Source: Acidimicrobiales bacterium | GTDB lineage: Bacteria > Actinomycetota > Acidimicrobiia > Acidimicrobiales > Aldehydirespiratoraceae | Assembly: GCA_033344915.1 (NCBI GenBank) | Contig: JAWPML010000001.1 | Coordinates: forward strand, 3,032,369 to 3,096,368 | Length of the DNA: 64,000 bases | Direction: 5' to 3' | Shown here: positions 2,077 to 17,829 of the stretch, one piece after another | How the letters are laid out: each line of letters starts with the position of its first letter | Numbering within the stretch: the stretch's first letter is position 1 | The notes under the pieces: generated by a model | The model's input: the letters and a program-made list of their open reading frames with translations, nothing else | The model's database searches: none | Told to the model about the DNA's origin: nothing | Translations under genes and position numbers: made by a program

Positions 2077-3525
2077 ATGTGGCGTGTCGCGGTCAGGAGT
2101 CTCGTCGGCCTGTCGGGCCTCGCACTGCTCGCCGCGGGATGCGCCGACGCACCCGATGAGGTCGCCACGACCGGTGTCGAGCGCATCGCCGGCGTCGCGC
2201 CCACCACCGAGCCGCCCCTGATCGATGCCGGCGCGACCGCGTCCCCCGCGCTCACGCCGACGCTTCCTCCGACGACGACGATCGCCGCGACCACCACGAC
2301 GATCCCGGCACCGGCCCCGACCCCGACGACCACCCCGACCGCCACCTCGACCGCCACCTCGACCGCACCCCCAACGCCCACCACCACTACGACCACCTCC
2401 ACCACCGCCACCGTGCCCGACGCCGGCTGTTGCGGGGAGGGTCGGCTGGAGATCTTCGTCACCGCGAAGTCCGCCTTCGACGTGTGGACCAGCGGCGGGC
2501 ACTGGGACTGGATGAACGAGCACTACGACTCGATGGTGGTCTGGGAGCCGTACTGGGATTCCCGACTGGACTCCTACGACGACGTGACGGTCTACCGCGA
2601 CGCCTACGCGATCAAGACGAACACCGACAAGGACCGCCGTTCGGTCGACCATCCCGACTGGCTTCTGCGCGACGCGGCCGGCGACCCCGTCTACATCCCG
2701 TTCGCCTGCAACGGCGGGTGTCCCCAGTTCGCGGCCGACGTCGGCAACCCGGCCTTCCGCGACGACTGGATCGCCCGGGTGCAGGCCTCCGTCGACCGGG
2801 GCTACCGCGGCCTGTTGATCGACGACGTGAACATGCTCTGGCGGTTCAGCGACGTGAACGGCGGCGACATCGAGCCGATCGACCCCCGCACGGGTGCGGT
2901 GCTGACCCTCGCCGACTGGCAGCGCTACATGACCGAGTTCATGGAGCAGGTGCGCGCCGCGTTCCCCCAGCTCGAGATCTGGCACAACTCGATCTGGTAC
3001 GCCGACTCCCCCACGTTCGACAACGCCCTCGTCGACCGTCAGATACGGGCCGCCGACGTGATCCAGCTCGAGCGCGGGATGAACGATCTCGGCCTCAAGA
3101 GCGGAACGTCGAAGTACGGCATGCAGACGTTCATGACCTTCATCGACCGGGTGCACGCCAACGGCGCCGGCGTCGCCCTACTCGACGAGAACGCCGTCGA
3201 CATCCAGGGCCAGTGGTACAACATCGCCGGCGGTCTGCTTGTCAACAACGGACGCGACCTGGTGACCACCGAGGACTGGGATCTGATCGCGCCGGGCGGG
3301 CTGTTCGACGGGTATCTCACCGATCTCGGCCACGCCCTCGGTCCCCGCGCTGTGGTCGACGGCACGATCCAGCGGGAGTTCACGGGCGGACTCGTCGTCA
3401 TGAACGAGCCCCGGTCGGATCCGGTGACCGTCGATCTCGGCGGCTCCTGGCTGACGCCCGAGGGCGACGCGGTCACCTCGGTCACCCTCGACACCCGCGA
3501 GGCCATCGTCCTCACGCGCCCCTGA
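2077..3525 (+). CDS. Lipoprotein with a Pro/Thr-rich linker and a glycoside-hydrolase-like TIM-barrel domain (GHL15-like)
   Basis: Lipobox LLAAGC, then a PTTTP/ATST low-complexity linker, then a C-terminal region (WDWMNEHYDSMVVWEPYWD...GYRGLLIDDVNMLW...EIWHNSIWY) resembling the hypothetical glycosyl hydrolase-like family 15. The family was recalled from memory. Confidence 0.55.
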   Translation: MWRVAVRSLVGLSGLALLAAGCADAPDEVATTGVERIAGVAPTTEPPLIDAGATASPALTPTLPPTTTIAATTTTIPAPAPTPTTTPTATSTATSTAPPTPTTTTTTSTTATVPDAGCCGEGRLEIFVTAKSAFDVWTSGGHWDWMNEHYDSMVVWEPYWDSRLDSYDDVTVYRDAYAIKTNTDKDRRSVDHPDWLLRDAAGDPVYIPFACNGGCPQFAADVGNPAFRDDWIARVQASVDRGYRGLLIDDVNMLWRFSDVNGGDIEPIDPRTGAVLTLADWQRYMTEFMEQVRAAFPQLEIWHNSIWYADSPTFDNALVDRQIRAADVIQLERGMNDLGLKSGTSKYGMQTFMTFIDRVHANGAGVALLDENAVDIQGQWYNIAGGLLVNNGRDLVTTEDWDLIAPGGLFDGYLTDLGHALGPRAVVDGTIQREFTGGLVVMNEPRSDPVTVDLGGSWLTPEGDAVTSVTLDTREAIVLTRP

Positions 3526-3543: not shown

Positions 3544-3587
3544 AGGTGAAGCGGGGGTCAGACCCCAGTTGAAGCGCGGGGTCAGAC
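3544..3587. repeat. Two tandem copies of a dispersed intergenic element (AGGTGAAGCGGGGGTCAGACCCC / AGTTGAAGCGCGGGGTCAGAC)
   Basis: Read directly. The same 23-mer recurs in forward and inverted orientation at 23209-23263, also between convergent genes. The second copy contains the stop codon (tca at 3582-3584) of the minus-strand gene. Confidence 0.6.
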
Positions 3588-5582
3588 GAGGAGGGCGTCG
3601 GTGATGACCTCGACGAGCGCGGGACCGTTGTGGGCGAGGGCGTCGGCGAGCGCGGCGTCGAGCTCGTCGAGTGACGTCACCCGGAAGCCCTTGGCCCCGC
3701 ACAGCTCGGCGAAGGCCGCGAACGACGGATTGTGCAAGGAGGTCTGCCACACGTCGAGGTCGGCGGCCCGCTGTTCCTTCGAGATCTTGCCGAGCTCGCT
3801 GTTGTTCATCACCACATGGATGATGTCCATGCCGTACTTCACCGCGGTCGTCATCTCCATGGCGTACTGGCCGAGGCCACCGTCGCCGGACACGGACACG
3901 ACCGGCCGCCCGGCGAACGCCGGCTGGCTCTGCGTGGCGGCCCACGATCCCATCGCCGCCGGCAGCGCGAACCCGATCGAGCCGAGATAGCCGGACATCA
4001 GCACCGACTGCTCCCGCACCTCGAAGTACCGACCGAACGAGTACGTGTTGTTGCCCACGTCGACCGGCATGATCGCGTCTGCGGGCACGAGACGACCGAG
4101 CGCGTCGAACAACGCCGCGGCATTGATGCCCGCGCCATGGTCGTCGGCCCGGCGGCTCGCCTTCTCCTCTCGCCAGATCGCCCAGCGCTCCGCGACCTCC
4201 GCCTCGGTGGACCGGCCCGCGTCCGCACACGCGTCGCGCAGCGCCCGGGCCGTCACCCCCACATGGCCCTGCACCGGGTGGGTGACAGCGTGGAAACGGC
4301 CGAGCGCCATCGGATCGAAGTCGACCTGCACGATCGGCTTGTAGTCGCTGATGCCCGTGTGGTTCGAGAACGACACGCCGAAGGTGACGAGCAGGTCGCT
4401 CTCGTTCATGAACCAGCTCGCGACGGGCGTGCCCGAACGGCCGAGCACACCACCGGCGAGCGGGTGGTGATCGGAGATGAGCCCCTTCGCCTTGAAGGTG
4501 GTCGCGACCGGCGCGTCGAGCTTCTCCGCGAGCGCCACGATGTCGGCCATCCCTTCGCGGGCGCCGTTCCCCACGATGATCACGGGCCGCTCCGCAGCGT
4601 CGATCGCGGCGATCGCGTCGGCCAGTGGGCCGGCGGGCGGGGCGATCTCGCGGCTGCCGGTGCGGCCCTCGGGTGACCCCACGCGGGCGCGGTCGGCGGC
4701 CGGTAGTTCCTGCACCTCGTCGGGGAACACGAGCTGGGCGACGTCTCGCTCGACCAGCGCCGTCTTGCACGCGAGCGACATGATCTCGCCGTGGTCGGAT
4801 CCGGCTTGCACCGTGGCCGAGTACCGGGCCACATCCGCGAACGCGGCGGCGAGATCCGTGTCCTGGAACGCCCCGCGGCCGCGCACCTTGCTCGGCACCT
4901 GGCCGCAGAGGGCGAGCACCGGCGCCCGATCCGTCTTCGCGTCGTAGAGGCCGGTGAGCAGGTTCGTCGAGCCCGGCCCGGCGATCGCGAAGCAGCCGGC
5001 GAGCTTGCCGGTGAGCTTGCCGTAGGCCGTGGCGGCGAACGACGCCGCGCCCTCGTGCCGGATCCCGATGTAGGTGAGATCACCGCGCTCCTCGGCGACG
5101 CGCATCGCGTCCGCGATCCCGAGATTCGAGTGCCCGACCATGCCGAACACATGGGTCACCCCCCAGGCGATCATCGTCTCGACCATCACGTCCGACACGG
5201 TGCGCACCCGGGCGGACTCGGTGGGCAACGCGACATAGACACCGTCCTCGCGCACCTCCGTGCGGTACGCATCGGGACCGTCGTTGAACGCGCCGGGCGG
5301 CTCACCGTTCTTCGGCGAGAAGTCGTAGCCGTGCCACGGGCACCGCAACCACCCCTTCTCGATCGAACCCTCCCCCAGCGGTCCGCCCTGATGCGGACAG
5401 GCGTTGTCGATGCAGCCGAAGCCGCCCTCGGCGGTGTTCGACACGCACAGTGACTCGTGGCCGATGGTGACGGTCGTGACCCGACCCTCGGGCAGCTCGT
5501 CGACCTCGATCAGCTTGTGCCACGCGAACGCCCCCTCGGGGAGCGCCGGCTCGGTCGTGGACGGGATCTCGTCGGAACTCAC
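3582..5582 (-). CDS. Rieske [2Fe-2S] domain fused to a TPP-dependent pyruvate-oxidase/PoxB-like enzyme
   Basis: The ORF-track entry 3582..5843 was trimmed to the GTG at 5582, which overlaps the upstream stop as GTGA. Rieske signature: CPHQGGPLGEGSIEKGWLRCPWHGY. TPP N-domain: VMVETMIAWGVTHVFGMVGHSN...GPGSTNLLTGLYDA. TPP-binding motif: GDGGLGQYAMEMTTAVKYGMDIIHVVMNNSELG. Confidence 0.8.
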   Translation of the reverse strand: MSSDEIPSTTEPALPEGAFAWHKLIEVDELPEGRVTTVTIGHESLCVSNTAEGGFGCIDNACPHQGGPLGEGSIEKGWLRCPWHGYDFSPKNGEPPGAFNDGPDAYRTEVREDGVYVALPTESARVRTVSDVMVETMIAWGVTHVFGMVGHSNLGIADAMRVAEERGDLTYIGIRHEGAASFAATAYGKLTGKLAGCFAIAGPGSTNLLTGLYDAKTDRAPVLALCGQVPSKVRGRGAFQDTDLAAAFADVARYSATVQAGSDHGEIMSLACKTALVERDVAQLVFPDEVQELPAADRARVGSPEGRTGSREIAPPAGPLADAIAAIDAAERPVIIVGNGAREGMADIVALAEKLDAPVATTFKAKGLISDHHPLAGGVLGRSGTPVASWFMNESDLLVTFGVSFSNHTGISDYKPIVQVDFDPMALGRFHAVTHPVQGHVGVTARALRDACADAGRSTEAEVAERWAIWREEKASRRADDHGAGINAAALFDALGRLVPADAIMPVDVGNNTYSFGRYFEVREQSVLMSGYLGSIGFALPAAMGSWAATQSQPAFAGRPVVSVSGDGGLGQYAMEMTTAVKYGMDIIHVVMNNSELGKISKEQRAADLDVWQTSLHNPSFAAFAELCGAKGFRVTSLDELDAALADALAHNGPALVEVITDALLV

Positions 5583-7204
5583 AGCGTCACGCCTCCGTAG
5601 GCAATACCCGTGAGATGGGCCATCTCGCGGTCGAACGTGGTCAGGTCGTCGCGGCAGAACTCGTCGAGGTGGGTGTGACCGCAGGCCCGGGCCAGCACGC
5701 CCATCAGTTCTACGCTCGCCGCGAAGAAGCGGTGGAGCCGGTCGGCGGCCTCGTCGACCGGCAGCCGCGCCCGCAGCTCCGGCTTCTGGGTCGCGATCCC
5801 GACCGGACAGTTGTTGGTCGAACACGCCCGCATGCCGATGCAACCGATGGCCTGCATCGCCGCGTTCGACACCGCCACCGCGTCGGCGCCGAGGGCCAGC
5901 GCCTTGGCGAAATCGGTGTGGGTCCGCAGCCCGCCGGTGATCACGAGCGTGATGTCCTGGCGACCGCGGGCATCGAGATGGCGCCGGGCCCGGGCGAGCG
6001 CGGGGATCGTCGGCACGGAGATGTGGTCGCGGAAGACGACCGGGGCGGCGCCCGTGCCGCCACCACGCCCGTCGAGGATCACGTAGTCGACGCCGACGCG
6101 GAGCGCAGCGTCGATGTCGTCCTCGATGTGCTGGGCCGAGAGCTTCACCCCGATCGGGACGCCGCCGGACGCCTCGCGCACCTCGTCGGCGAGACGGCGG
6201 TAGTCGTCCTCACAGTCGAGATCCTCGAACGTCGACGGCGAGATCGCGTCCTCCCCCGGCTCGAGCCCGCGGACCTCGGCGATCTTCCCCTGGACCTTGA
6301 TCCCCGGCAGGTGGCCACCGGTGCCGGTCTTCGCTCCCTGTCCGAGCTTGAAGTGGAAGGCCTGCACCCCGCCACCGTTCTCGGGCCGCACCTTGTCGAG
6401 CGACCAGCCGAACTTCCCGCTCGCGAGCTCGTAGAAGTAGCGGGAGTTGGCGTCGCGCTCCTCCGGGAGCATCCCACCCTCACCCGAGCAGATGCCGGTG
6501 CCGGCGAGCTCCGCCCCCCTGGCCAGCGCCACCTTCGCCTCCTCGCTGAGCGCGCCGAAGGACATGTCGCTGACGAACAGCGGGATGTCGAGGCGCAGCG
6601 GCGAGTCGGCGTTCGGGCCGATCACGACGTCCGTCGCCACCGGCACCTCGTCGAGCTGGGGCTTGCGGGCGAGCTGGGCGGTGACGAACTGGATGTCGTC
6701 CCACCGCGGCAGCTCCTCGCGGGACACCCCCATCGACGTGACCGGGCCGTGGTGTCCGAGATAGTCGAGCCCCTCGTTCGCGAGCTGGCGGATCAACCCG
6801 ACGTGGGGCTCCGCCGGGTCGCCGTGCGGGTCCTGGTAGGCGCCCTGGTACGCGTCGCGGTCGTACGGCTGGGGGTGTTCCTTCGTCCAGAGGCGGATCT
6901 CCTCGGCGTCGACGAGGAGATCGTCGTCCTCGATCCACGAGGAGAACTTCGCGAGCCGTTCGCTGTTGTCGTAGCTCGACACCCCGGTGTGGAACACATA
7001 GTCCCAACCGTGCAGTCCGCAGATGAGATCGTCGCCGTCGACATGACCGTCCGCCATCAAGGCACCGCGGTGCAGACACCGGCCGTAGAGGACCGAGTGG
7101 TTGTCGTCGAAGCGCACGATGACGAGATCCACACCGTCCACGAACGCGCCGACGGGCTCCCGATCCGGTACCTCGCTCCAGTTCGCGATCTTCACTGCCT
7201 GCAT
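5579..7204 (-). CDS. Rieske [2Fe-2S] domain fused to a glutamate-synthase-type FMN/3Fe-4S domain (GltB domain-2-like)
   Basis: Trimmed to the ATG at 7204, which is preceded by GAGGAGG (7210-7216 on the minus strand). Rieske signature: CLHRGALMADGHVDGDDLICGLHGW. GltS FMN-domain motifs: FHFKLGQGAKTGTGGHLPG, ILDGRGGGTGAAP, and the C-x5-C-x4-C triad in GCIGMRACSTNNCPVGIATQ. Confidence 0.8.
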   Translation of the reverse strand: MQAVKIANWSEVPDREPVGAFVDGVDLVIVRFDDNHSVLYGRCLHRGALMADGHVDGDDLICGLHGWDYVFHTGVSSYDNSERLAKFSSWIEDDDLLVDAEEIRLWTKEHPQPYDRDAYQGAYQDPHGDPAEPHVGLIRQLANEGLDYLGHHGPVTSMGVSREELPRWDDIQFVTAQLARKPQLDEVPVATDVVIGPNADSPLRLDIPLFVSDMSFGALSEEAKVALARGAELAGTGICSGEGGMLPEERDANSRYFYELASGKFGWSLDKVRPENGGGVQAFHFKLGQGAKTGTGGHLPGIKVQGKIAEVRGLEPGEDAISPSTFEDLDCEDDYRRLADEVREASGGVPIGVKLSAQHIEDDIDAALRVGVDYVILDGRGGGTGAAPVVFRDHISVPTIPALARARRHLDARGRQDITLVITGGLRTHTDFAKALALGADAVAVSNAAMQAIGCIGMRACSTNNCPVGIATQKPELRARLPVDEAADRLHRFFAASVELMGVLARACGHTHLDEFCRDDLTTFDREMAHLTGIAYGGVTL

Positions 7205-7317
7205 CGACGCCTCCTCGGCCCGGTCGGGTGCCATACCCTGCCTCACGGGGCTCCCCGGCGCAGAAGGAACTACCGCAGCGCCGGATTCGTTCCCGAACGC
7301 CAGGAGGGGTGGACACG

Positions 7318-8580
7318 GTGAGCACGTCGGACATCGCGATCATCGCCGGCTTCGTGATCGCCTACGGGCTCGTGTCGCGCCGCGTCGAACACTCGTTGCT
7401 GACCGGCCCGATGCTGTTCGTCGGATTCGGGTTGCTCGTCGGCAGCGCGGGGTTCGACGTGCTCGACTTCGGGCTCGACTCGACCGGCGTCGAGGTGCTC
7501 GCCGAGGCGACCCTCGGGCTGCTCCTGTTCACCGACGCGACCCGCATCGACACGGCCCGACTGCGCTCGGACGTCGTCCTGCCGGCGCGGATGCTCCTGC
7601 TCGGTCTGCCCCTGGCGATCGCGCTCGGCACGGGCCTCGCCGCCGTCCTGTTCGACATCCCGATCGCGGTCGCCGCGCTCCTCGCCGCGATCCTCGCGCC
7701 GACGGATGCCGCCCTCGGCGAGGCGGTCGTCAGCAGTCCGTCCGTGCCGGTGCGCGTGCGGCAGTCCCTCAACGTCGAGAGCGGACTCAACGACGGCATC
7801 GCCCTCCCCGCCGTGACGGTCTTCGTCGCCCTCGCCGCCGAGGACGAGGCGTTCTCGACCGCCAGCAGCTGGGCTCGTTTCGCGGCGGAGCAGGTCGGCT
7901 ACGGCGTGGCGCTCGGCGTCGTCGTCGGCTGCGTCGGCGCCGTCCTCGTCCGTGACGCGAGCCGGCGCGGGTGGATGGAGGGCATCTATCGCCAGCTCGG
8001 GGTGCTCGCCCTCGCGACGCTGACCTTCGCGCTCGCGACCCAGGTCGGGGGCAACGGTTTCATCGCCACGTTCGTCGGCGGTCTCGCCTTCGGCGCGATC
8101 GCCCGGGTCGAGTGCAACACCGTGGCGGAGTTCACCGATGATGTCGCCCACCTGCTCGCGATGCTCAGCTTCATCGTGTTCGGCGCCCTGATCGTCGGAC
8201 CCTCGCTCGACGAGATCGACTGGCGGGTGGCGGTCTACGCGGTCGGCAGCCTCGTGCTCGTCCGACCGGTGGCGATCGGGCTCTCGTTGCTCGGCGCCGG
8301 ACTTCAGCCGCCGACCGTCGCCTTCTTCGGTTGGTTCGGGCCGCGGGGCCTCGCATCCATCCTCTTCGGGATCGTGGCGCTCGAGGAGGCCCACGGCACG
8401 GACCTCTCCATCGTGTTCGTCGTGATGTCGTGGACGGTGCTGCTCTCGATCGTCGTCCACGGCATGACCGCGGGAATCGGCGCCGAGGCTTATGGACGCT
8501 GGTGGTCGGACCGACGGGATGACGCGATGCCCGAGTCCCTGCCCATGCCCGAACAACGCCGCCGCGGCGAGGCTCCGTGA
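7318..8580 (+). CDS. Na+/H+ (cation:proton) antiporter, CPA1 family
   Basis: Trimmed to the GTG at 7318, 8 nt after AGGAGGGG (7302-7309). Polytopic, with LAAILAPTDAALG and NVESGLNDGIALP motifs typical of NhaP-type exchangers. Confidence 0.8.
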   Translation: MSTSDIAIIAGFVIAYGLVSRRVEHSLLTGPMLFVGFGLLVGSAGFDVLDFGLDSTGVEVLAEATLGLLLFTDATRIDTARLRSDVVLPARMLLLGLPLAIALGTGLAAVLFDIPIAVAALLAAILAPTDAALGEAVVSSPSVPVRVRQSLNVESGLNDGIALPAVTVFVALAAEDEAFSTASSWARFAAEQVGYGVALGVVVGCVGAVLVRDASRRGWMEGIYRQLGVLALATLTFALATQVGGNGFIATFVGGLAFGAIARVECNTVAEFTDDVAHLLAMLSFIVFGALIVGPSLDEIDWRVAVYAVGSLVLVRPVAIGLSLLGAGLQPPTVAFFGWFGPRGLASILFGIVALEEAHGTDLSIVFVVMSWTVLLSIVVHGMTAGIGAEAYGRWWSDRRDDAMPESLPMPEQRRRGEAP

Positions 8581-9788
8581 GCACGTCCGCGGACGTCGCG
8601 ATCGTCGGCGCCGGCATCCTCGGGCTCACCACGGCGAGAGCACTGCTCGCCCGCGATCCACGGCGCCGCATCGTCGTCCTCGACAAGGAGGACACGCCGG
8701 CGCACCACCAGACCGGTCGCAACAGCGGCGTCATCCACTCCGGGATCTACTACCGGCCCGATTCCGGGAAGGCGGCGATGGTCGCGGCGGGACGTGACGA
8801 CCTGTTGGCGTTCCTCGAACAGCACGGCATCACCTACGACATGTGCGGCAAGGTCGTCGTGGCCGTCTCCCCCGACGAGGTCGGCCGCCTCGACGCACTC
8901 GAGGTCCGCGCCGCGGAGAACCATGTCGCCACGGAGCGGCTCGACCGGGCGGCCCTGCGCGAGCGCGAACCCCACATCGAAGGCGTGGCGGCGCTGCTCG
9001 TGCCGAGCGCGGGCATCGTCGACTACGCCGCCGTGTGTGACGCCCTCGTCGCCGAACTGGCCGCGGCCGGCGTGGAGATCCGACTCGGCACCGCGGTGCG
9101 CGGCGCGGTCGCCGACTCGAACGGGGTGACCGTCACCACCGACGGCGGCAGCCTCACCGTCGGGTCGATCGTGAACTGCGGCGGGCTGCACTGTGATCGG
9201 GTCGCCGTTGCGGCCGGGGCGGACACCGAGGGCGTGCGGGTCATGCCGTTCCGGGGCGAGTACTACGAGCTCGCCCCCCATGCCCGTGGCCTCGTCAACC
9301 ATCTCGTCTACCCGCTCCCCGACCCCGACTTCCCGTTCCTCGGCGTGCACCTGACCCGCATGATCGACGGCTCGATCCATGCCGGCCCCAACGCGGTGCC
9401 CGCGCTGGCGCGGGAGGGCTACCGCTGGCGTGACATCTCGCCGCGCGACACCGCGGAGATCGCGTTCGCTCGGCGCACCTGGGTCCTGGCCCGCCGCTAC
9501 TGGCGCAAGGAGGTCGGCGAGATCCACCGGTCACTGAGTCGCCGGGCGTTCCTGAAGGCGCTGCGGCGGCTGTGCCCGGACCTCTCGGCGGGCGACCTCG
9601 AGCCGTCGGCGTCCGGCGTGCGGGCCCAGGCCATCGCGCCGGACGGCACGCTGCTCGACGACTTCGCGTTCGCCGAGAGCCCCCGGGCCGTCCATGTGAT
9701 GAACGCGCCATCCCCGGCGGCCACGGCCAGCTTCGCCATCGCGGAGACCGTGGCCGACCGGCACGAACGCGTGCTCTCGCCGGGCTGA
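8577..9788 (+). CDS. lhgO: L-2-hydroxyglutarate oxidase/dehydrogenase (FAD-dependent)
   Basis: N-terminal DVAIVGAGILGLTTA Rossmann fold. HQTGRNSGVIHSGIYYRPDS and REREPHIEG...LLVPSAGIVDY align closely with E. coli LhgO as I remember it. GTGA overlap with the antiporter stop. Confidence 0.8.
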   Translation: MSTSADVAIVGAGILGLTTARALLARDPRRRIVVLDKEDTPAHHQTGRNSGVIHSGIYYRPDSGKAAMVAAGRDDLLAFLEQHGITYDMCGKVVVAVSPDEVGRLDALEVRAAENHVATERLDRAALREREPHIEGVAALLVPSAGIVDYAAVCDALVAELAAAGVEIRLGTAVRGAVADSNGVTVTTDGGSLTVGSIVNCGGLHCDRVAVAAGADTEGVRVMPFRGEYYELAPHARGLVNHLVYPLPDPDFPFLGVHLTRMIDGSIHAGPNAVPALAREGYRWRDISPRDTAEIAFARRTWVLARRYWRKEVGEIHRSLSRRAFLKALRRLCPDLSAGDLEPSASGVRAQAIAPDGTLLDDFAFAESPRAVHVMNAPSPAATASFAIAETVADRHERVLSPG

Positions 9789-9851: not shown

Positions 9852-11081
9852 ATGTTCACGGCGACGATCACGGCGATGCGAGAGGACCGACTCGACGGTC
9901 TTTCGCGTGCCGAGCTCGTCGGCCGGGTCGAGGAGCTGCGGCGGTTCCGCGGCGCGGTCGCGGACTACGAAGCGCGGCTGGTGCGGGCGATCGACGCGTT
10001 GGACGACAACGGGCTCGACGGACGCGGTGTGCTGCGCTCACACGGGCGGGTGTCAGGCAAGACGGCTCATCGGGCGGCGCGGACCGCGCACGGGTTGGCC
10101 GACATGCCGCGTGCGGAAGCCGCGCTGGCGGCCGGGCGGATCACCGCGGAACATGCCCATTCGCTCACCAAGGCCGGTCGTGAGATTCACCCCGAGTCGG
10201 CTGACGCGGAGTTGGTCGAGATCGCGGAGACGTCGCCGGCGGACCTGTTCGCCAAGCGCACCACCGAATGGATCAGCAAGCGGAAGAAGTCCGACCCGAA
10301 GCCTGATCACGACGCCCAACGACGAGCCCGCACCCTGAAGCGCTGGGACGACAAGGCGACCGGGCTGCGCATGTTCCTCCTCGGCGTCGACCAAACCACC
10401 GGGGCACTCCTCGACGCCGACATCAACCGACTCGAACAAACCCTCTGGAACGACGACGGCGGCCGCAACGCCGACCCCACAACCGCCCGCACCCACGACC
10501 AACGCCTCGCCGACGCCGTCACCCAACTCATCACCGGCGCCCGGCGCGACACCGACCGGCCACCCCATCCCAAGTCCAACGTCACCGTCCTCATCGACAT
10601 CGCCGCCATGACTTCCGAGGACGGGAACCCGCTCGCCACATGCGTCCAGGACGGACAGCCGCTGCCGGCATCCGTGCTCGACCGGCTCACCTGCGTCTCC
10701 AGCATCACCCCGATCCTGTTCAACGGACCAGCCAACCCGATCTGGGTCGGCCGCGACCACCGCCACGCCACCCTCACCCAATGGCGCGCCCTCATCGCCC
10801 GCGACCGCGGCTGCATCGGCTGCGGCGCCACCCCCGACCGCTGCGAAGCCCACCACATCGACCACTGGGAACACCACGGCGACACCGACATCGACAACCT
10901 CGTCCTCGTCTGCACCCGCTGCCACCACAACATCCACGACCGAAACCACACCCTCCACCGGACCAACGGCCGCTGGACCATCCGACCACCCGGCGCACCA
11001 CCACCCGACACCACCGCCGACGCACCCATTCGCGACTTCCCCACCGACACCGAGCCCGAGTACCTCACGCTCACCGCCTGA
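9852..11081 (+). CDS. DUF222 domain + HNH endonuclease protein (REP13E12-type)
   Basis: N-terminal DUF222-like region (RLVRAIDALDDNG...RITAEHAHSL). C-terminal HNH: CIGCGATPDRCEAHHIDHWEHHGDTDIDNLVLVCTRCHHNIHD. Confidence 0.85.
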   Translation: MFTATITAMREDRLDGLSRAELVGRVEELRRFRGAVADYEARLVRAIDALDDNGLDGRGVLRSHGRVSGKTAHRAARTAHGLADMPRAEAALAAGRITAEHAHSLTKAGREIHPESADAELVEIAETSPADLFAKRTTEWISKRKKSDPKPDHDAQRRARTLKRWDDKATGLRMFLLGVDQTTGALLDADINRLEQTLWNDDGGRNADPTTARTHDQRLADAVTQLITGARRDTDRPPHPKSNVTVLIDIAAMTSEDGNPLATCVQDGQPLPASVLDRLTCVSSITPILFNGPANPIWVGRDHRHATLTQWRALIARDRGCIGCGATPDRCEAHHIDHWEHHGDTDIDNLVLVCTRCHHNIHDRNHTLHRTNGRWTIRPPGAPPPDTTADAPIRDFPTDTEPEYLTLTA

Positions 11082-14358: not shown

Positions 14359-17300
14359 TCAGACGGTGACGGTCAACGGCTCGCCACAGGCCGCGGCGAA
14401 CGCCGTGCGCCACCCGAGCGTGTCCAGACCGAGCGCACTCGCGGTCTTGATCGCCCGCACCTCGGCGGCCGCTGCGTCCTCCGCATCGAGGGTCGCCAGA
14501 CACTGCGCTTCCGCGAGCGCCACCACCGTGGGGTGCACGCGATCGCCACCGGCGGGGATGGCGTCGTAGGCCCGGCCGAGTGCCACCCGGCACCCTTGTT
14601 CGTTGCCGGAACGGGCCGCCACGCAAGCAAGCGCGAGACGGGCCAGCACGCGGTCAGCGTAGGTGGTCCGCGTCGACGACTCGACCACATCGGCGAGGGA
14701 CTCCACGTCCTTCTCGACGACGGCGGCGACGAGGGCGAGCACGGCCCACCCCCAGGTCGATCCTTCACCGGGTGTGTCCGGCATGACATCGAACAGGCGC
14801 ACGGCGACGTCCACGTCCCCCCGCTGAAGGCTGATCAGCGCCATGGCCACGGTCTGGTCGGACTCCCCGAGCCGGTCGTCGTCGAAGCCGACGACCTCGC
14901 GGAACGTGCGGCGACCGATCATCACGTCGCCCACGGTGGCGGCGGCCGCGGCCAACGCGGTCTCGAGGATCTGGGCGCCGGGGTGACCGGGCTCCTTGGC
15001 GAGCTCACCGGTGAGGATCCGGAACCCCTCGGCGATGCGCCCCGCACGGATGAGGGCGCGGGCCTCGACGGCGATCGCCTGCACGAGGCCCATCGGATCC
15101 GAGTCGAGGGGCATGATCTGCTGCGCCCGCTGCGCTCGACGGACGGCTTCGTCGACCCGCCCCGTCCACAGCGCCGAGATCGCCAGGGCGACGTGCATCA
15201 TCCCCTGGGCCCAGCGGTCACCACGGTCGCGCGCCTCCGCCAGCGTGCGGGTGGCGAGCTCGTCCGCCTCCGCGAATCGACCGGCATGGATCCGCACATA
15301 GGCGAGCAGGCCCCGCGACCAGGCCATGCCGGCGAGGTCACCGAGCTCCTCGAACGCGTCGACCGCCTGTTCGAGCCGCACCTCCGCGTCGCCCATCTCG
15401 CCGGACACGTACGAGATCCAGGCAAGGTTCTGACGGGCCCAGGCCATCCCCCGAGGATCGCCGGCCTCCCCGTAGGCGTCGTACGCGAGGTTGATCGACG
15501 ACTCGGCCATGTCGTGTTCGCCCCGGAAGAGCCGCACCATGCCGACGCGCCGCAGGCCATCGGCCTCGAGCACGGGATCCTGCAGCGAGTGCGCCAGCTC
15601 GAGCGCGTTCTCCCCGATACGCAGCGCCCCGTCCTGGTCGCCGAGCCATTGGGCCACCTCGCTGCGCAGGAGCTGGATGCGCACATCGAGTCGCGGGTCG
15701 TCCACCCGTTCGAGGAGCGGCCCCGCCGCGTCGAGATCGCGGGCGGCGATGGCGACGTCCAACCGGCTGAGGGCGGACTCGGCTCGTTCCAGCAGCACCT
15801 CCGCCTTGCGAACGTCGTCGTCGTCCATCAGTCCGAGCGCTTCGCCGAACAGTTGCTCGGCCCGCTCGACGGCACTCGCACCCGAGGTCGCCCGGCCGGC
15901 GGCGAGTGTCCATTCGATCGCCTTCTCGGTCAGGTCGTCGCCGATCCCGTCGATGCCACCGAGCTCGCGGTTGTGCAGCGCCGCCCGGCGGTAGTGGTAC
16001 GAGATGATCTCCGCCCCGCCGGCGTGCTTGTTCGCCTCGATCCAGCTCGCGATGCCGGCGTGGCGCCAGGCCCGATCCGTCTTCGTGAGGCGGCTGTAGA
16101 CCACGTCGCGCACGAGGTTCGCCCGAAACGCCCAGGTCCGCCCGGTGTGCTCGAGCAGATCGAGCCGCTCGAGCGTGCGCAAGGCGCTCACGATGTCGGC
16201 CTCACCGCGTTGGATCTCGGCCATCCGTTCGAGCGCCACGACCTCCCCGCGCAGACCGAGCACGGCGGCGTCTTCGATCACGTGGCGGGCCACGTCGTCG
16301 AGAGCATCGAGTCGACTGCTGATCACGCTGCGGACGTTCGCCGGGAGATTGCCGATCTCGTCGAGGTCGGCCTCCTCGACCATGCGGGCCATCTCCTCGA
16401 GGAACAGGGGGTTGCCGCCCGCCCGTTCGACGATCTGGGCCCGCACCTCGTCCGAGGCGTCCGGGAGCAGGACGCGGGCGAGCCGGTCACCGGCGTCGGC
16501 GTCGAGCGGTTCGACATTGAGGCTCATGACGTTGAAGCGACCGGGCTTCGGGTTCCAGCGATCGAACATCTCGGCCCGACCGGTGACCAGCAGCACGACC
16601 CGGCGCCGGCTCAGCCGGTCCAGGAAGTCGTCCAGGAGGCGCAGCACGGGATCGTCGGCCCAGTCGATGTCGCTCAACCAGACGAACACGGGCCCGTTGC
16701 GCGACAAGGCGTTGAGCAGCGCGATCGCGGCCCGGGTGCCCTCCTCCGCGGCCCGCTCGTGGTCGAGTCGGGCGAGCCCGGTCTCGTAGCCGAGGAGATG
16801 GCGCAGCCCCTCGGCGGTACGGGCGACGTTGACCGGATCCGCGTCCGGTCCGAACGCCGAAGCCACGCCATCGGCGACGAGGTCGGGAACGTCCTCCGGG
16901 GCCGTCGACGCGTCGATGTCGAGTGCGCCCCGCGCCGCTTCGGCCACCGGCCACCACACGTTCGCCTCGCCGTAGGGCAGGCACCGACCGTGTAGCACGA
17001 GGGCGCCGAAGTCGGTGCGGGCGACCGTGGCGACCTCCTCGGCCAGCTTGGTCTTGCCCAGACCCGATTCGCCCGTGAGCACGATCAGCTGGGCGCGGCC
17101 CCGGCGATACGCCGCGGCGACGGCGCGACGCAGCACCGCGAGCTCGGGATCGCGCCCGATCAGCGGCACGTCGGGTCGGTCGCGACGTTCGCCGGGTCGA
17201 CCGACCGGTTCGACGGCGCGGAACGCGTTGACCGGTTCTTCGCGACCGCGGGCGTGGAGCTGCCCCATCGAACGGAAGTGGATGACCTCGGCGGTGGCGG

Positions 17301-17829
17301 CGTGGGTGGCCGCGCCGACCAGCACGGTGCCGGGTTCGGCGGCGGTCTGGAGCCGGGACGCCGTGTTCACCACGTCGCCCATGGCGGTGTAGTCGTCGCC
17401 GGCGGAAATGGCACCGACCACCACTTCGCCGGTGTTGATACCGATACGCACCCGGATGCCCACCCCGGTCTCGTTGTCGAAGCGGGTGACGGTCTCCTGC
17501 ATGCGCAGACCGGCCCGCACCGCGCGTTCGGCGTCGTCCTGGTGAGCCACGGGGGCGCCGAAGAGGGCGACGATGGCGTCGCCGATCACCTTGTCGACGC
17601 GCCCGCCGAAGGCGGTGATGTCGTCCGCCAGCAGGGCGAAGCAGCGGTCGACGAGGTTCTTGACCTGTTCCGGGTCGCGGGTCTCCGACAGGCCCGTGAA
17701 ACCGACGATGTCGGCGAACAACACCGTGACGAGGCGCCGTTCGTCGTGCCGACGCGCCATCTCGTGCCCGCAACTGCTGCAGAAGCGCGCCGCGTCGGCC
17801 TCATCGCTGCGACAGTTGGGGCACTCCAT
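14359..17829 (-). CDS. Zn-ribbon / class III adenylate-guanylate cyclase / AAA(AAA_16) ATPase / TPR multidomain regulator
   Basis: N-terminal CPNC...CSSCG. Cyclase domain: VTVLFADIVGFTGLSE...GDAIVALFGAP...RIGINTGEVVVG...GDVVNTASRL. P-loop: LTGESGLGKTKLA. The long C-terminal half is helical and TPR-like. No LuxR-type HTH at the C-terminus. Confidence 0.85.
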   Translation of the reverse strand: MECPNCRSDEADAARFCSSCGHEMARRHDERRLVTVLFADIVGFTGLSETRDPEQVKNLVDRCFALLADDITAFGGRVDKVIGDAIVALFGAPVAHQDDAERAVRAGLRMQETVTRFDNETGVGIRVRIGINTGEVVVGAISAGDDYTAMGDVVNTASRLQTAAEPGTVLVGAATHAATAEVIHFRSMGQLHARGREEPVNAFRAVEPVGRPGERRDRPDVPLIGRDPELAVLRRAVAAAYRRGRAQLIVLTGESGLGKTKLAEEVATVARTDFGALVLHGRCLPYGEANVWWPVAEAARGALDIDASTAPEDVPDLVADGVASAFGPDADPVNVARTAEGLRHLLGYETGLARLDHERAAEEGTRAAIALLNALSRNGPVFVWLSDIDWADDPVLRLLDDFLDRLSRRRVVLLVTGRAEMFDRWNPKPGRFNVMSLNVEPLDADAGDRLARVLLPDASDEVRAQIVERAGGNPLFLEEMARMVEEADLDEIGNLPANVRSVISSRLDALDDVARHVIEDAAVLGLRGEVVALERMAEIQRGEADIVSALRTLERLDLLEHTGRTWAFRANLVRDVVYSRLTKTDRAWRHAGIASWIEANKHAGGAEIISYHYRRAALHNRELGGIDGIGDDLTEKAIEWTLAAGRATSGASAVERAEQLFGEALGLMDDDDVRKAEVLLERAESALSRLDVAIAARDLDAAGPLLERVDDPRLDVRIQLLRSEVAQWLGDQDGALRIGENALELAHSLQDPVLEADGLRRVGMVRLFRGEHDMAESSINLAYDAYGEAGDPRGMAWARQNLAWISYVSGEMGDAEVRLEQAVDAFEELGDLAGMAWSRGLLAYVRIHAGRFAEADELATRTLAEARDRGDRWAQGMMHVALAISALWTGRVDEAVRRAQRAQQIMPLDSDPMGLVQAIAVEARALIRAGRIAEGFRILTGELAKEPGHPGAQILETALAAAAATVGDVMIGRRTFREVVGFDDDRLGESDQTVAMALISLQRGDVDVAVRLFDVMPDTPGEGSTWGWAVLALVAAVVEKDVESLADVVESSTRTTYADRVLARLALACVAARSGNEQGCRVALGRAYDAIPAGGDRVHPTVVALAEAQCLATLDAEDAAAAEVRAIKTASALGLDTLGWRTAFAAACGEPLTVTV

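Follow-up and report, generated by a model that had tools for sequence, protein, structure and literature searches.

Two Rieske-headed enzymes, one glutamate-synthase-like and one pyruvate-oxidase-like, as a possible redox pair

What might be gained by encoding side by side two enzymes of quite different chemistry, each with a Rieske-type [2Fe-2S] domain at its N-terminus? The question is raised by two genes in a 64-kb stretch of DNA (64,000 nucleotides, which we call the window) from an Acidimicrobiales bacterium (contig JAWPML010000001.1). Gene A encodes a Rieske domain fused to a flavin mononucleotide (FMN)/[3Fe-4S] synthase domain of the glutamate synthase (GltS) type, and gene B encodes a Rieske domain fused to a three-domain thiamine pyrophosphate (TPP) enzyme of the PoxB/POX/PQO type. 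The catalytic cores of both are known, while their fusions to electron ports are new and the conserved multi-gene association in which they take part is uncharacterised; our searches of the literature turned up no paper on either fusion, on the A-B pair or on DUF5996, a family that we meet repeatedly below. The answer that we tentatively lean towards, and would call a good possibility without yet betting on it, is that A and B work as a functionally coupled redox pair, B supplying the electrons and A taking them up. Which way the electrons run, what the substrates are and whether A and B touch are all matters that we infer, and they are set out as such in the last section, after the architecture, the distribution and the neighbours of the two genes.

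Two known catalytic cores with Rieske heads

Gene A (positions 5579–7204, minus strand) starts with an ATG at 7204, has a GAGGAGG ribosome-binding site 7 nt upstream of it and encodes 541 residues, and its assignment draws on the open reading frame (ORF), on Pfam and PDB searches and on the fold of an AlphaFold2 (AF2) model. The Rieske head (6875–7204, minus strand; residues 1–110) is matched by Pfam Rieske over residues 4–74 (E 3.3e-12, 46.6 bits against a cut-off of 20.3), with its ligands C43, H45, C62 and H65 in the spacing C43-x-H45, 16 residues, C62-x-x-H65. Behind it lies the Glu_synthase (PF01645) FMN barrel (5681–6616, minus strand), which Pfam places at residues 197–508 with an E of 1.6e-88 and in which two stretches are conserved, GQGAKTGTGGHLPG at residues 288–301 and DGRGGGTGAAP. 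The [3Fe-4S] triad C455-x5-C461-x4-C466 (5807–5842, minus strand) aligns with the GltS cluster cysteines of solved structures, and it is invariant in 84 orthologs and remains so in a second subfamily with 43% identity to A. In the AF2 model (pLDDT, the predicted local distance difference test, 85.6; pTM, the predicted template modelling score, 0.73) a Rieske head with a pLDDT of about 90 is followed by a low-confidence linker at residues 111–170; the best fold matches of this model are the GltS FMN domains 7MFM, 1OFD and 1EA0, and by sequence the PDB entries closest to A are GltS alpha subunits.

Is A then simply a glutamate synthase? We rejected this idea. The core does have the same FMN TIM-barrel and the same C-x5-C-x4-C [3Fe-4S] ligands as GltS alpha and the ferredoxin-dependent enzyme, Fd-GltS (1OFD, 1EA0, 7MFM), at about 30% identity over some 300 residues, and like Fd-GltS it needs an external one-electron donor. 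What A lacks is the PurF-type N-terminal nucleophile (Ntn) amidotransferase, the central domain, the C-terminal GXGXG beta-helix and GltD; any ammonia would have to be taken from solution, and A carries instead a donor domain, the Rieske head, fused in cis. Pfam finds no GATase_2 match in A, which ends at residue 541, just past the barrel; E. coli GltB, compared with the 64-kb window, matches with residues 863–1125 only, within gene A, leaving 1–862 and 1126–1486 unmatched; there is no GltD homolog in the whole window; and against the NCBIfam glutamate synthase model NF008730 A scores 138, far below the cut-off of 1047. Fusions that bring a donor to this core in cis have a parallel in split archaeal GltS-like proteins, in which a 4Fe-4S ferredoxin domain is fused to Glu_synthase.

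A phmmer alignment to 1LLW/1OFD equates residues E242, Q289, K292 and R312 of A with E903, Q969, K972 and R992 of Synechocystis Fd-GltS, and all four are invariant in the orthologs and in the second subfamily; together with Q978, these are the Fd-GltS residues that we take to surround the bound 2-oxoglutarate. Where GltS has Q978 the A subfamily has H298, and a PHHD stretch is also altered. The same Lys and Arg are found in MgsC, so the conserved residues of A are no proof of glutamate synthase activity, and MgsC, like A a stand-alone Glu_synthase-domain protein, had to be considered as an identity for A in its own right. In the mgsABC-gmaS cluster of Ruegeria, MgsC has retained the Lys and Arg and is missing the three cluster cysteines (a YerD-like protein of the Bacillus type is without both), and MgsC always comes with the amidotransferase-like mgsA, the GXGXG-type mgsB and gmaS, no neighbours of which kind stand beside A in 80 loci. 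An identity as MgsC, or N-methylglutamate synthase, was therefore rejected, and because the triad is kept in A and lost in MgsC, A resembles a true electron-consuming or electron-producing GltS core, unlike its redox-neutral relatives.

Gene B (3582–5582, minus strand; 666 residues) begins with a GTG at 5582 that lies on the TGA stop codon of A, forming the GTGA of positions 5579–5582, an arrangement that is, judged by the overlap itself, translational coupling. Pfam, NCBIfam, PDB matches and the AF2 fold agree on its type. The Rieske head (5223–5528; residues 19–120) is hit by both Pfam Rieske and Rieske_2, by the former over residues 21–94 (E 6.5e-17, 61.7 bits against the cut-off of 20.3), and its ligands C62, H64, C81 and H84 are again spaced as C62-x-H64, 16 residues, C81-x-x-H84. 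Then come, all on the same minus strand, TPP_enzyme_N, the Pyr domain (4854–5201, Pfam E 4e-32), TPP_enzyme_M, the central domain (4239–4622, E 2.2e-31), and TPP_enzyme_C, the PP domain (3606–4061, E 2e-33), with its G566-D-G-G ... N593-N594. The catalytic Glu177, equivalent to E50 in an alignment with E. coli PoxB, is invariant in the orthologs, as is D567-G-G among 34 of them. It is the central domain that binds FAD (flavin adenine dinucleotide) in PoxB and POX, and B probably binds it there too, its nearest relatives all being FAD enzymes.

These nearest relatives are consistent across methods. The best NCBIfam model for B is the pyruvate oxidase PRK08611 (386.7 bits against a cut-off of 742; PRK06546 gives 296 against 893 and PRK09124 290 against 792), sequence comparison with the PDB puts C. 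glutamicum PQO (9EV3-6), L. plantarum POX and E. coli PoxB first, and the AF2 model (pLDDT 80.8, pTM 0.78) is closest in fold to E. coli PoxB (3EYA), L. plantarum POX and C. glutamicum PQO. With PoxB (3EY9/3EYA), PQO and POX, B shares the three-domain TPP/FAD fold, the catalytic Glu and GDG...NN, at 27–29% identity (29% to E. coli PoxB). In PoxB and PQO pyruvate is oxidised on TPP, FAD is reduced and the electrons go to a quinone at the membrane. The C-terminus of B falls about 40 residues short of the PoxB end, and the PDB alignments stop near chain residue 534 of 564–581; B is thus without the amphipathic C-terminal peptide that binds membrane or lipid, and is autoinhibitory, in PoxB and PQO, and carries in its stead a Rieske domain of about 120 residues at the N-terminus. 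For these reasons (a score under all equivalog cut-offs, no membrane tail and an extra Rieske head) we rejected B as an ordinary PoxB or PQO. A scan for promoter and terminator consensus sequences found nothing, and a hairpin just 3' of the stop codon of B does not stand out from shuffled sequence (z = -1.24).

The four Rieske ligands are invariant in the 84 A orthologs, across both A subfamilies, and in 34 B orthologs, so the motif is not there by chance, and AF2 models both beta-rich heads with confidence. Both share the C-x-H...C-x-x-H motif, the size and the Rieske fold with Rieske-type ferredoxins (BphF, T4moC, HcaC, AndAb) and NirD-like Rieske_2 domains; the extra disulfide cysteines of bc1-type Rieske proteins are absent from them, and both are probably of the low-potential ferredoxin type. 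The Rieske ferredoxins of dioxygenases are free shuttles, whereas the heads of A and B are fused to their client enzymes, with no cognate reductase or oxygenase gene nearby.

Relatives of A show what else can occupy the position of its head. Those of Vibrio, Photobacterium and Pseudoalteromonas are 57–67% identical to A over residues 132–541. On the Vibrio fortis plasmid pLMG21557 (locus L082, 8680–10230) a relative 60% identical to A has two CDGSH-type [2Fe-2S] motifs replacing the Rieske head (Pfam zf-CDGSH, E 9.5e-22); it is solitary, lying between a GNAT gene and DMT transporter genes, with no B gene annotated within 9 kb. Two further relatives carry CDGSH motifs, a Cys-rich segment and a Rieske domain stacked together (protein P0259, 754 residues) or CDGSH motifs only (P0244, 631 residues), and these two suggest, from their motifs, a wider family of enzymes made of an Fe-S head and a GltS core. 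Since the Rieske domain is swapped for CDGSH in some relatives and stacked with it in another, the head of A looks like an interchangeable 2Fe-2S electron port.

Much of this picture had been sketched by a sequence-only reading of the locus. It had described an adjacent minus-strand pair overlapping by GTGA at 5579–5582, with a Rieske signature in front of each protein, and the overlap is there in the sequence and the signatures are exact, with ligands that proved invariant; it had expected Rieske plus Glu_synthase and Rieske plus TPP_enzyme N/M/C, which is what Pfam returned. The GltS motifs and cysteine triad that it saw in A are present and conserved, its choice of PoxB or pyruvate oxidase as the closest relative of B agrees with the NCBIfam and PDB results, and its remark that neither an amidotransferase domain nor GltD occurs in the window holds for the full 64 kb, where GltB finds matches only inside gene A.

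Distribution and conservation of the pair

How common are these fusions? Protein searches with A and with B give thousands of matches each, and in a scan of one genome per species, from which the best 80 relatives were analysed, relatives of A occur in at least 588 species genomes of more than 10 phyla. The best 80 are 67–87% identical to A over its full length and come from Acidimicrobiia, Gamma- and Alphaproteobacteria (Roseibium, Yoonia, Cognatiyoonia), Myxococcota (Plesiocystis pacifica), Nitrospirota, Planctomycetota, Gemmatimonadota, Chloroflexota, a cyanobacterium and others; to go by record names and sources, most host genomes and contigs are of marine, sponge-associated or hypersaline origin. 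Across phyla A remains 67–70% identical, and in a library clustered at 50% identity the whole A group collapses into one representative. Identity this high across phyla implies, as far as sequence comparison goes, strong constraint and horizontal transfer.

The pair also crosses into the archaea. Megaplasmids of Halorubrum, Halorarius and Salinirubellus hold both A (63% identical) and B (58–60%), with a Rieske head on each. A B ortholog 56% identical, its Rieske head kept, is encoded on plasmid 1 of Mycobacteroides abscessus subsp. bolletii 50594 (locus L085, 9034–10935), a mobilizable plasmid in a clinical mycobacterium, where it lies near a cation:proton antiporter, a flavodoxin-family protein, a TetR regulator and DUF4331, with no A within 9 kb of it. 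On two Chloroflexota-type contigs (L176, 8643–10600, and L177, 4766–6719, both minus strand) the Rieske-TPP gene is called as two ORFs, one with Rieske and TPP_N and the other with TPP_M and TPP_C; the enzyme may be truly split, or a frameshift or assembly error may have broken the gene.

How often do A and B keep company? We counted this from either side, in 42 species-genome loci with at least 5 kb on each side of A and in 39 metagenome loci with at least 2.5 kb on each side of B, both sets made up of the matches most similar to the window proteins and thus no random sample. In 24 of the 42 loci, spread over more than 10 bacterial phyla, a Rieske-headed B gene is found no more than 10 kb from A, and an A gene lies within 7 kb of B in 11 of the 39; these adjacency figures (57% A-seeded, 28% B-seeded) are lower bounds for co-occurrence. 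The gene orders seen include A-B, B-A, A-DUF5996-B and A-(FRD-Rieske)-(260-aa protein)-B, and there are divergent pairs as well. The second Rieske-GltS-like subfamily, 43–44% identical to A and found in Chloroflexota, Nitrospinota and some Acidimicrobiia, adjoins a Rieske-TPP gene (54–58% identical to B) in five of seven contexts, in one of which a DUF5996-like gene stands between the two. Because adjacency recurs with an A subfamily that is only 43% identical, the A-B link is old and robust. Among 32 loci that hold both genes, the pairwise identities of A and of B correlate (r = 0.69, Mantel 0/2000), a correlation for which shared descent alone could suffice.

The sequence-only reading had proposed that related genomes would keep the two architectures as neighbours, and the bacterial loci, the three haloarchaeal megaplasmids and the second subfamily agree in saying that they do. 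We conclude that the association of A and B is ancient and functional yet facultative, and the recurring neighbourhood points to a shared redox function. All-against-all clustering of the ORFs of 167 loci, together with Pfam scans of the window genes, found no conserved third redox partner (reductase or ferredoxin) near A or B except for one, the FRD-Rieske protein, in 10 loci.

Recurrent partners and the genes around the pair in the window

Three partners recur around A and B, all of them missed by the sequence-only reading: DUF5996-like proteins, a CPA1-family antiporter, and the FRD-Rieske protein with its 260-residue companion. DUF5996 or a DUF5996-like protein (about 280 residues) has a gene in 20 A-seeded and 31 B-seeded loci, out of 80 each, which makes it the most frequent neighbour of B. 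DUF5996 and two divergent DUF5996-like groups share the pattern WP(H/E)HFD ... SPGD ... EPY(F/L/W)Y (for example L028, 8970–9809; L070, 11635–12489; L103, 3616–4559; L173, 8730–9467). One DUF5996-like protein, compared by sequence with the PDB, had no significant match there, and the window itself holds no DUF5996-like gene.

The FRD-Rieske protein lies in the membrane and combines a di-haem domain of the ferric-reductase/MsrQ-like kind with a Rieske domain at its C-terminus, an architecture that a 2013 survey of ferric-reductase domains listed with no function assigned. Its gene lies next to A or B in 10 of the 80 A-seeded loci and in none of the 80 B-seeded loci, and is always followed by a gene for a 260-residue membrane-anchored protein without family assignment (L058, 6654–8479; L051, 14000–15842; L022, 15748–16900, minus strand); in Roseibium the order is c2-A-B-FRD-Rieske-x. 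Together the two proteins may be a trans-membrane electron outlet.

A homolog of the CPA1 antiporter is encoded beside A or B in 18 A-seeded and 10 B-seeded loci (80 of each); Halorarius has one adjoining B, and the Mycobacteroides abscessus plasmid one a short way from B. In the window the antiporter gene (7309–8580, plus strand) is divergent from A; its maximal ORF runs from 7228 and homology begins at about 7333, Pfam Na_H_Exchanger matches it with an E of 6e-32, and its best NCBIfam models are K+/H+ antiporters, below cut-off. It overlaps by 4 nt the gene of an L-2-hydroxyglutarate oxidase, LhgO (8577–9788, plus strand; NCBIfam NF008726, 517 bits against a cut-off of 299), which puts a 2-oxoglutarate-producing enzyme beside the A-B operon, a link that was seen in none of the other loci.

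In haloarchaea, on the Halorarius halobius plasmid (L084, 15012–19270) and in Salinirubellus (L083, 11351–15967), A comes first in an apparent operon with several 4-nt gene overlaps, whose other genes are annotated as dihydrofolate reductase, M20 metallohydrolase and TauE/SafE exporter, and the surroundings are rich in genes of sulfur trafficking and stress (TusA, rhodanese, DsrE, YeeE, MerA, peroxiredoxin). Next to B, haloarchaea have an AstE-like (succinylglutamate desuccinylase-like) gene.

To complete the surroundings in the window, whose G+C content is about 70%, the convergent neighbour of B (2077–3525, plus strand) encodes a protein that is probably secreted or lipid-anchored; it has a long linker rich in Thr and Pro and a domain matching GHL15, hypothetical glycosyl hydrolase 15 (E 5.7e-11). 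Further away lie a 409-residue ORF (9852–11081, plus strand) with an HNH-like Cys/His motif near its C-terminus, seen by eye only, and a gene for a 1156-residue adenylate/guanylate cyclase-AAA-TPR regulator (14359–17829, minus strand); both are probably unrelated to the A-B finding.

Electron hand-over, rival explanations and significance

How might such a pair work? B would decarboxylate a 2-oxoacid on TPP and load two electrons on to FAD, which is established chemistry for the PoxB/PQO family; having no C-terminal tail with which to reach a membrane quinone, it would then pass the electrons singly to its own N-terminal low-potential Rieske cluster, so that the head would serve as an outlet in place of the missing membrane tail. 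From there the electrons would cross to A, either directly from head to head or by way of a shared small carrier, and the head of A would be the inlet that replaces GltD or ferredoxin and feeds the [3Fe-4S] cluster and then FMN. A review of GltS describes just this last route, with single electrons passing from the donor to [3Fe-4S] and on to an FMN that reduces 2-iminoglutarate. In A, the reduction would be that of an imine, at a site that keeps the GltS 2-oxoglutarate residues, and the likeliest substrate would be 2-iminoglutarate, formed from 2-oxoglutarate and free ammonia and yielding glutamate without glutamine.

We favour this coupling because an obligate electron producer sits with a typical electron consumer, and the deep synteny of the two genes, together with their translational coupling in the window, supports it. 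A self-contained donor/acceptor pair would also explain why most A-B loci, and the 64-kb window, lack a conserved third redox gene, and a head of A that can be swapped for other 2Fe-2S domains fits the role of a pure electron port. The same logic, with a PoxB-type source and a GltS-type sink, is chemically sensible and was already part of the sequence-only reading, in which the two heads could form a private electron wire; our literature searches found no pathway assigned to the pair, of which that reading knew no characterised example. One can go further and imagine a self-contained, oxygen-compatible glutamate synthase driven by 2-oxoacids, in which B would be an aerobic analogue of pyruvate:ferredoxin oxidoreductase that charges the Rieske cluster and A a minimal GltS that aminates 2-oxoglutarate with free ammonia, the two forming with the antiporter and DUF5996 a horizontally mobile module of cation and glutamate homeostasis common to bacteria and haloarchaea of mostly marine or hypersaline origin; so specific a version we regard as improbable.

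Several observations pull against a coupled pair with B as source and A as sink. The heads are only 21% identical over 56 residues, and therefore show no sign of a co-evolved matched pair; the sequence-only reading had called the heads matched, but a match by duplication was rejected on this account, and the head of B is in fact closer to the head of the FRD-Rieske protein, at 34%, than to that of A. In 18 of the 42 A loci there is no B within 10 kb, 28 of the 39 B loci are without a nearby A, the two genes are 17 kb apart on the Halorubrum plasmid, and the Haloferax and Mycobacteroides plasmids have B with no A nearby. H298 and the altered PHHD stretch mean that the substrate of A may differ from 2-iminoglutarate, and the M20 hydrolase and AstE-like neighbours in haloarchaea, with LhgO in the window, suggest the release or breakdown of glutamate rather than its synthesis.

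In an opposite scheme that also fits the data, the two enzymes would catalyse consecutive oxidative steps. A, running the GltS half-reaction in reverse, would oxidise glutamate, or a related amino or N-substituted dicarboxylate, to a 2-oxoacid and ammonia or an amine, and B would decarboxylate that acid oxidatively (for example 2-oxoglutarate to succinate and CO2), both sending electrons out by way of the Rieske heads to one shared acceptor such as FRD-Rieske or the respiratory chain; with the K+/H+ antiporter, such a pathway would remove K-glutamate in salt-adapted cells. Its appeal is that the 2-oxoacid product of A would belong to the substrate class of B, that adjacent translationally coupled genes often encode successive reactions, and that A retains the residues for binding 2-oxoglutarate or glutamate in a context (LhgO, the M20 hydrolases in operon with A, the AstE-like gene by B) that speaks of the same metabolites, in mostly marine or hypersaline hosts whose antiporter, in the window, best matches the K+/H+ type. 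FRD-Rieske, a candidate for that acceptor, does stand beside A or B in 10 of 80 A-seeded loci but in none of the B-seeded ones, most A-B loci encode no acceptor for four electrons, GltS-type FMN/[3Fe-4S] sites are normally reductive, and heads that appear to be of the low-potential type would suit a donor to A better than a quinone outlet. We consider consecutive oxidation rather unlikely. A less intimate relation, to which we would give a modest chance, is that A and B are independent enzymes, each head plugging into a general redox partner (an NAD(P)H-dependent ferredoxin reductase or a respiratory component), and that they travel together only as members of one co-regulated, horizontally mobile module, tied to stress or habitat, that also includes the CPA1 antiporter and DUF5996, handing over neither electrons nor metabolites. 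That would sit well with how often each gene is found without the other, with the stand-alone A of Vibrio and of 12 of the 42 well-flanked loci, with partner sets as variable as those of DUF5996-like proteins (20/80 and 31/80) and the antiporter (18/80 and 10/80), with the mobility of the module (its plasmids, and the 67–70% identity of A across phyla), and with haloarchaeal neighbourhoods that hold reductases of the pyridine-nucleotide-disulfide type alongside stress and sulfur-trafficking genes. It is harder for co-regulation alone to keep the genes adjacent across two A subfamilies 43% identical, both domains of life and several gene orders; neither A nor B has a conserved reductase gene at its side, and the complementarity of producer and consumer would have to be a coincidence.

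Finally, B might do no redox chemistry at all and be a TPP carboligase or lyase like CybE, BbmA or a HACL-type enzyme, with the heads of A and B acting as redox or iron sensors or as structural domains. Carboligases and lyases do score well against B (8X3X HKA synthase, acetolactate synthases, 2-hydroxyacyl-CoA lyases), and B stays under every NCBIfam equivalog cut-off, but the top matches in sequence and in fold (PQO, POX, PoxB) are all FAD-dependent oxidoreductases, all four Rieske ligands are invariant in both proteins, relatives of A replace the head with another redox-active 2Fe-2S domain, and the complete [3Fe-4S]/FMN wire retained in A requires an electron partner. A non-redox B thus strikes us as very improbable, and it is to the coupled pair, with B feeding A, that we return in considering what the locus may mean.

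If that reading is true, a PoxB/PQO-type enzyme that feeds a fused low-potential Rieske cluster rather than a quinone would be an oxygen-tolerant TPP/FAD counterpart of the 2-oxoacid:ferredoxin oxidoreductases, and its partner would be a GltS core stripped of its glutamine-handling domains and fed by a Rieske or CDGSH head in cis. The association also provides a first functional context for DUF5996. The family concerned is large and has been exchanged between phyla and between domains of life, under no better annotation than 'glutamate synthase-related protein' and 'thiamine pyrophosphate-binding protein', and should the coupling be true, its members would represent two new ways to wire well-known flavoenzymes.

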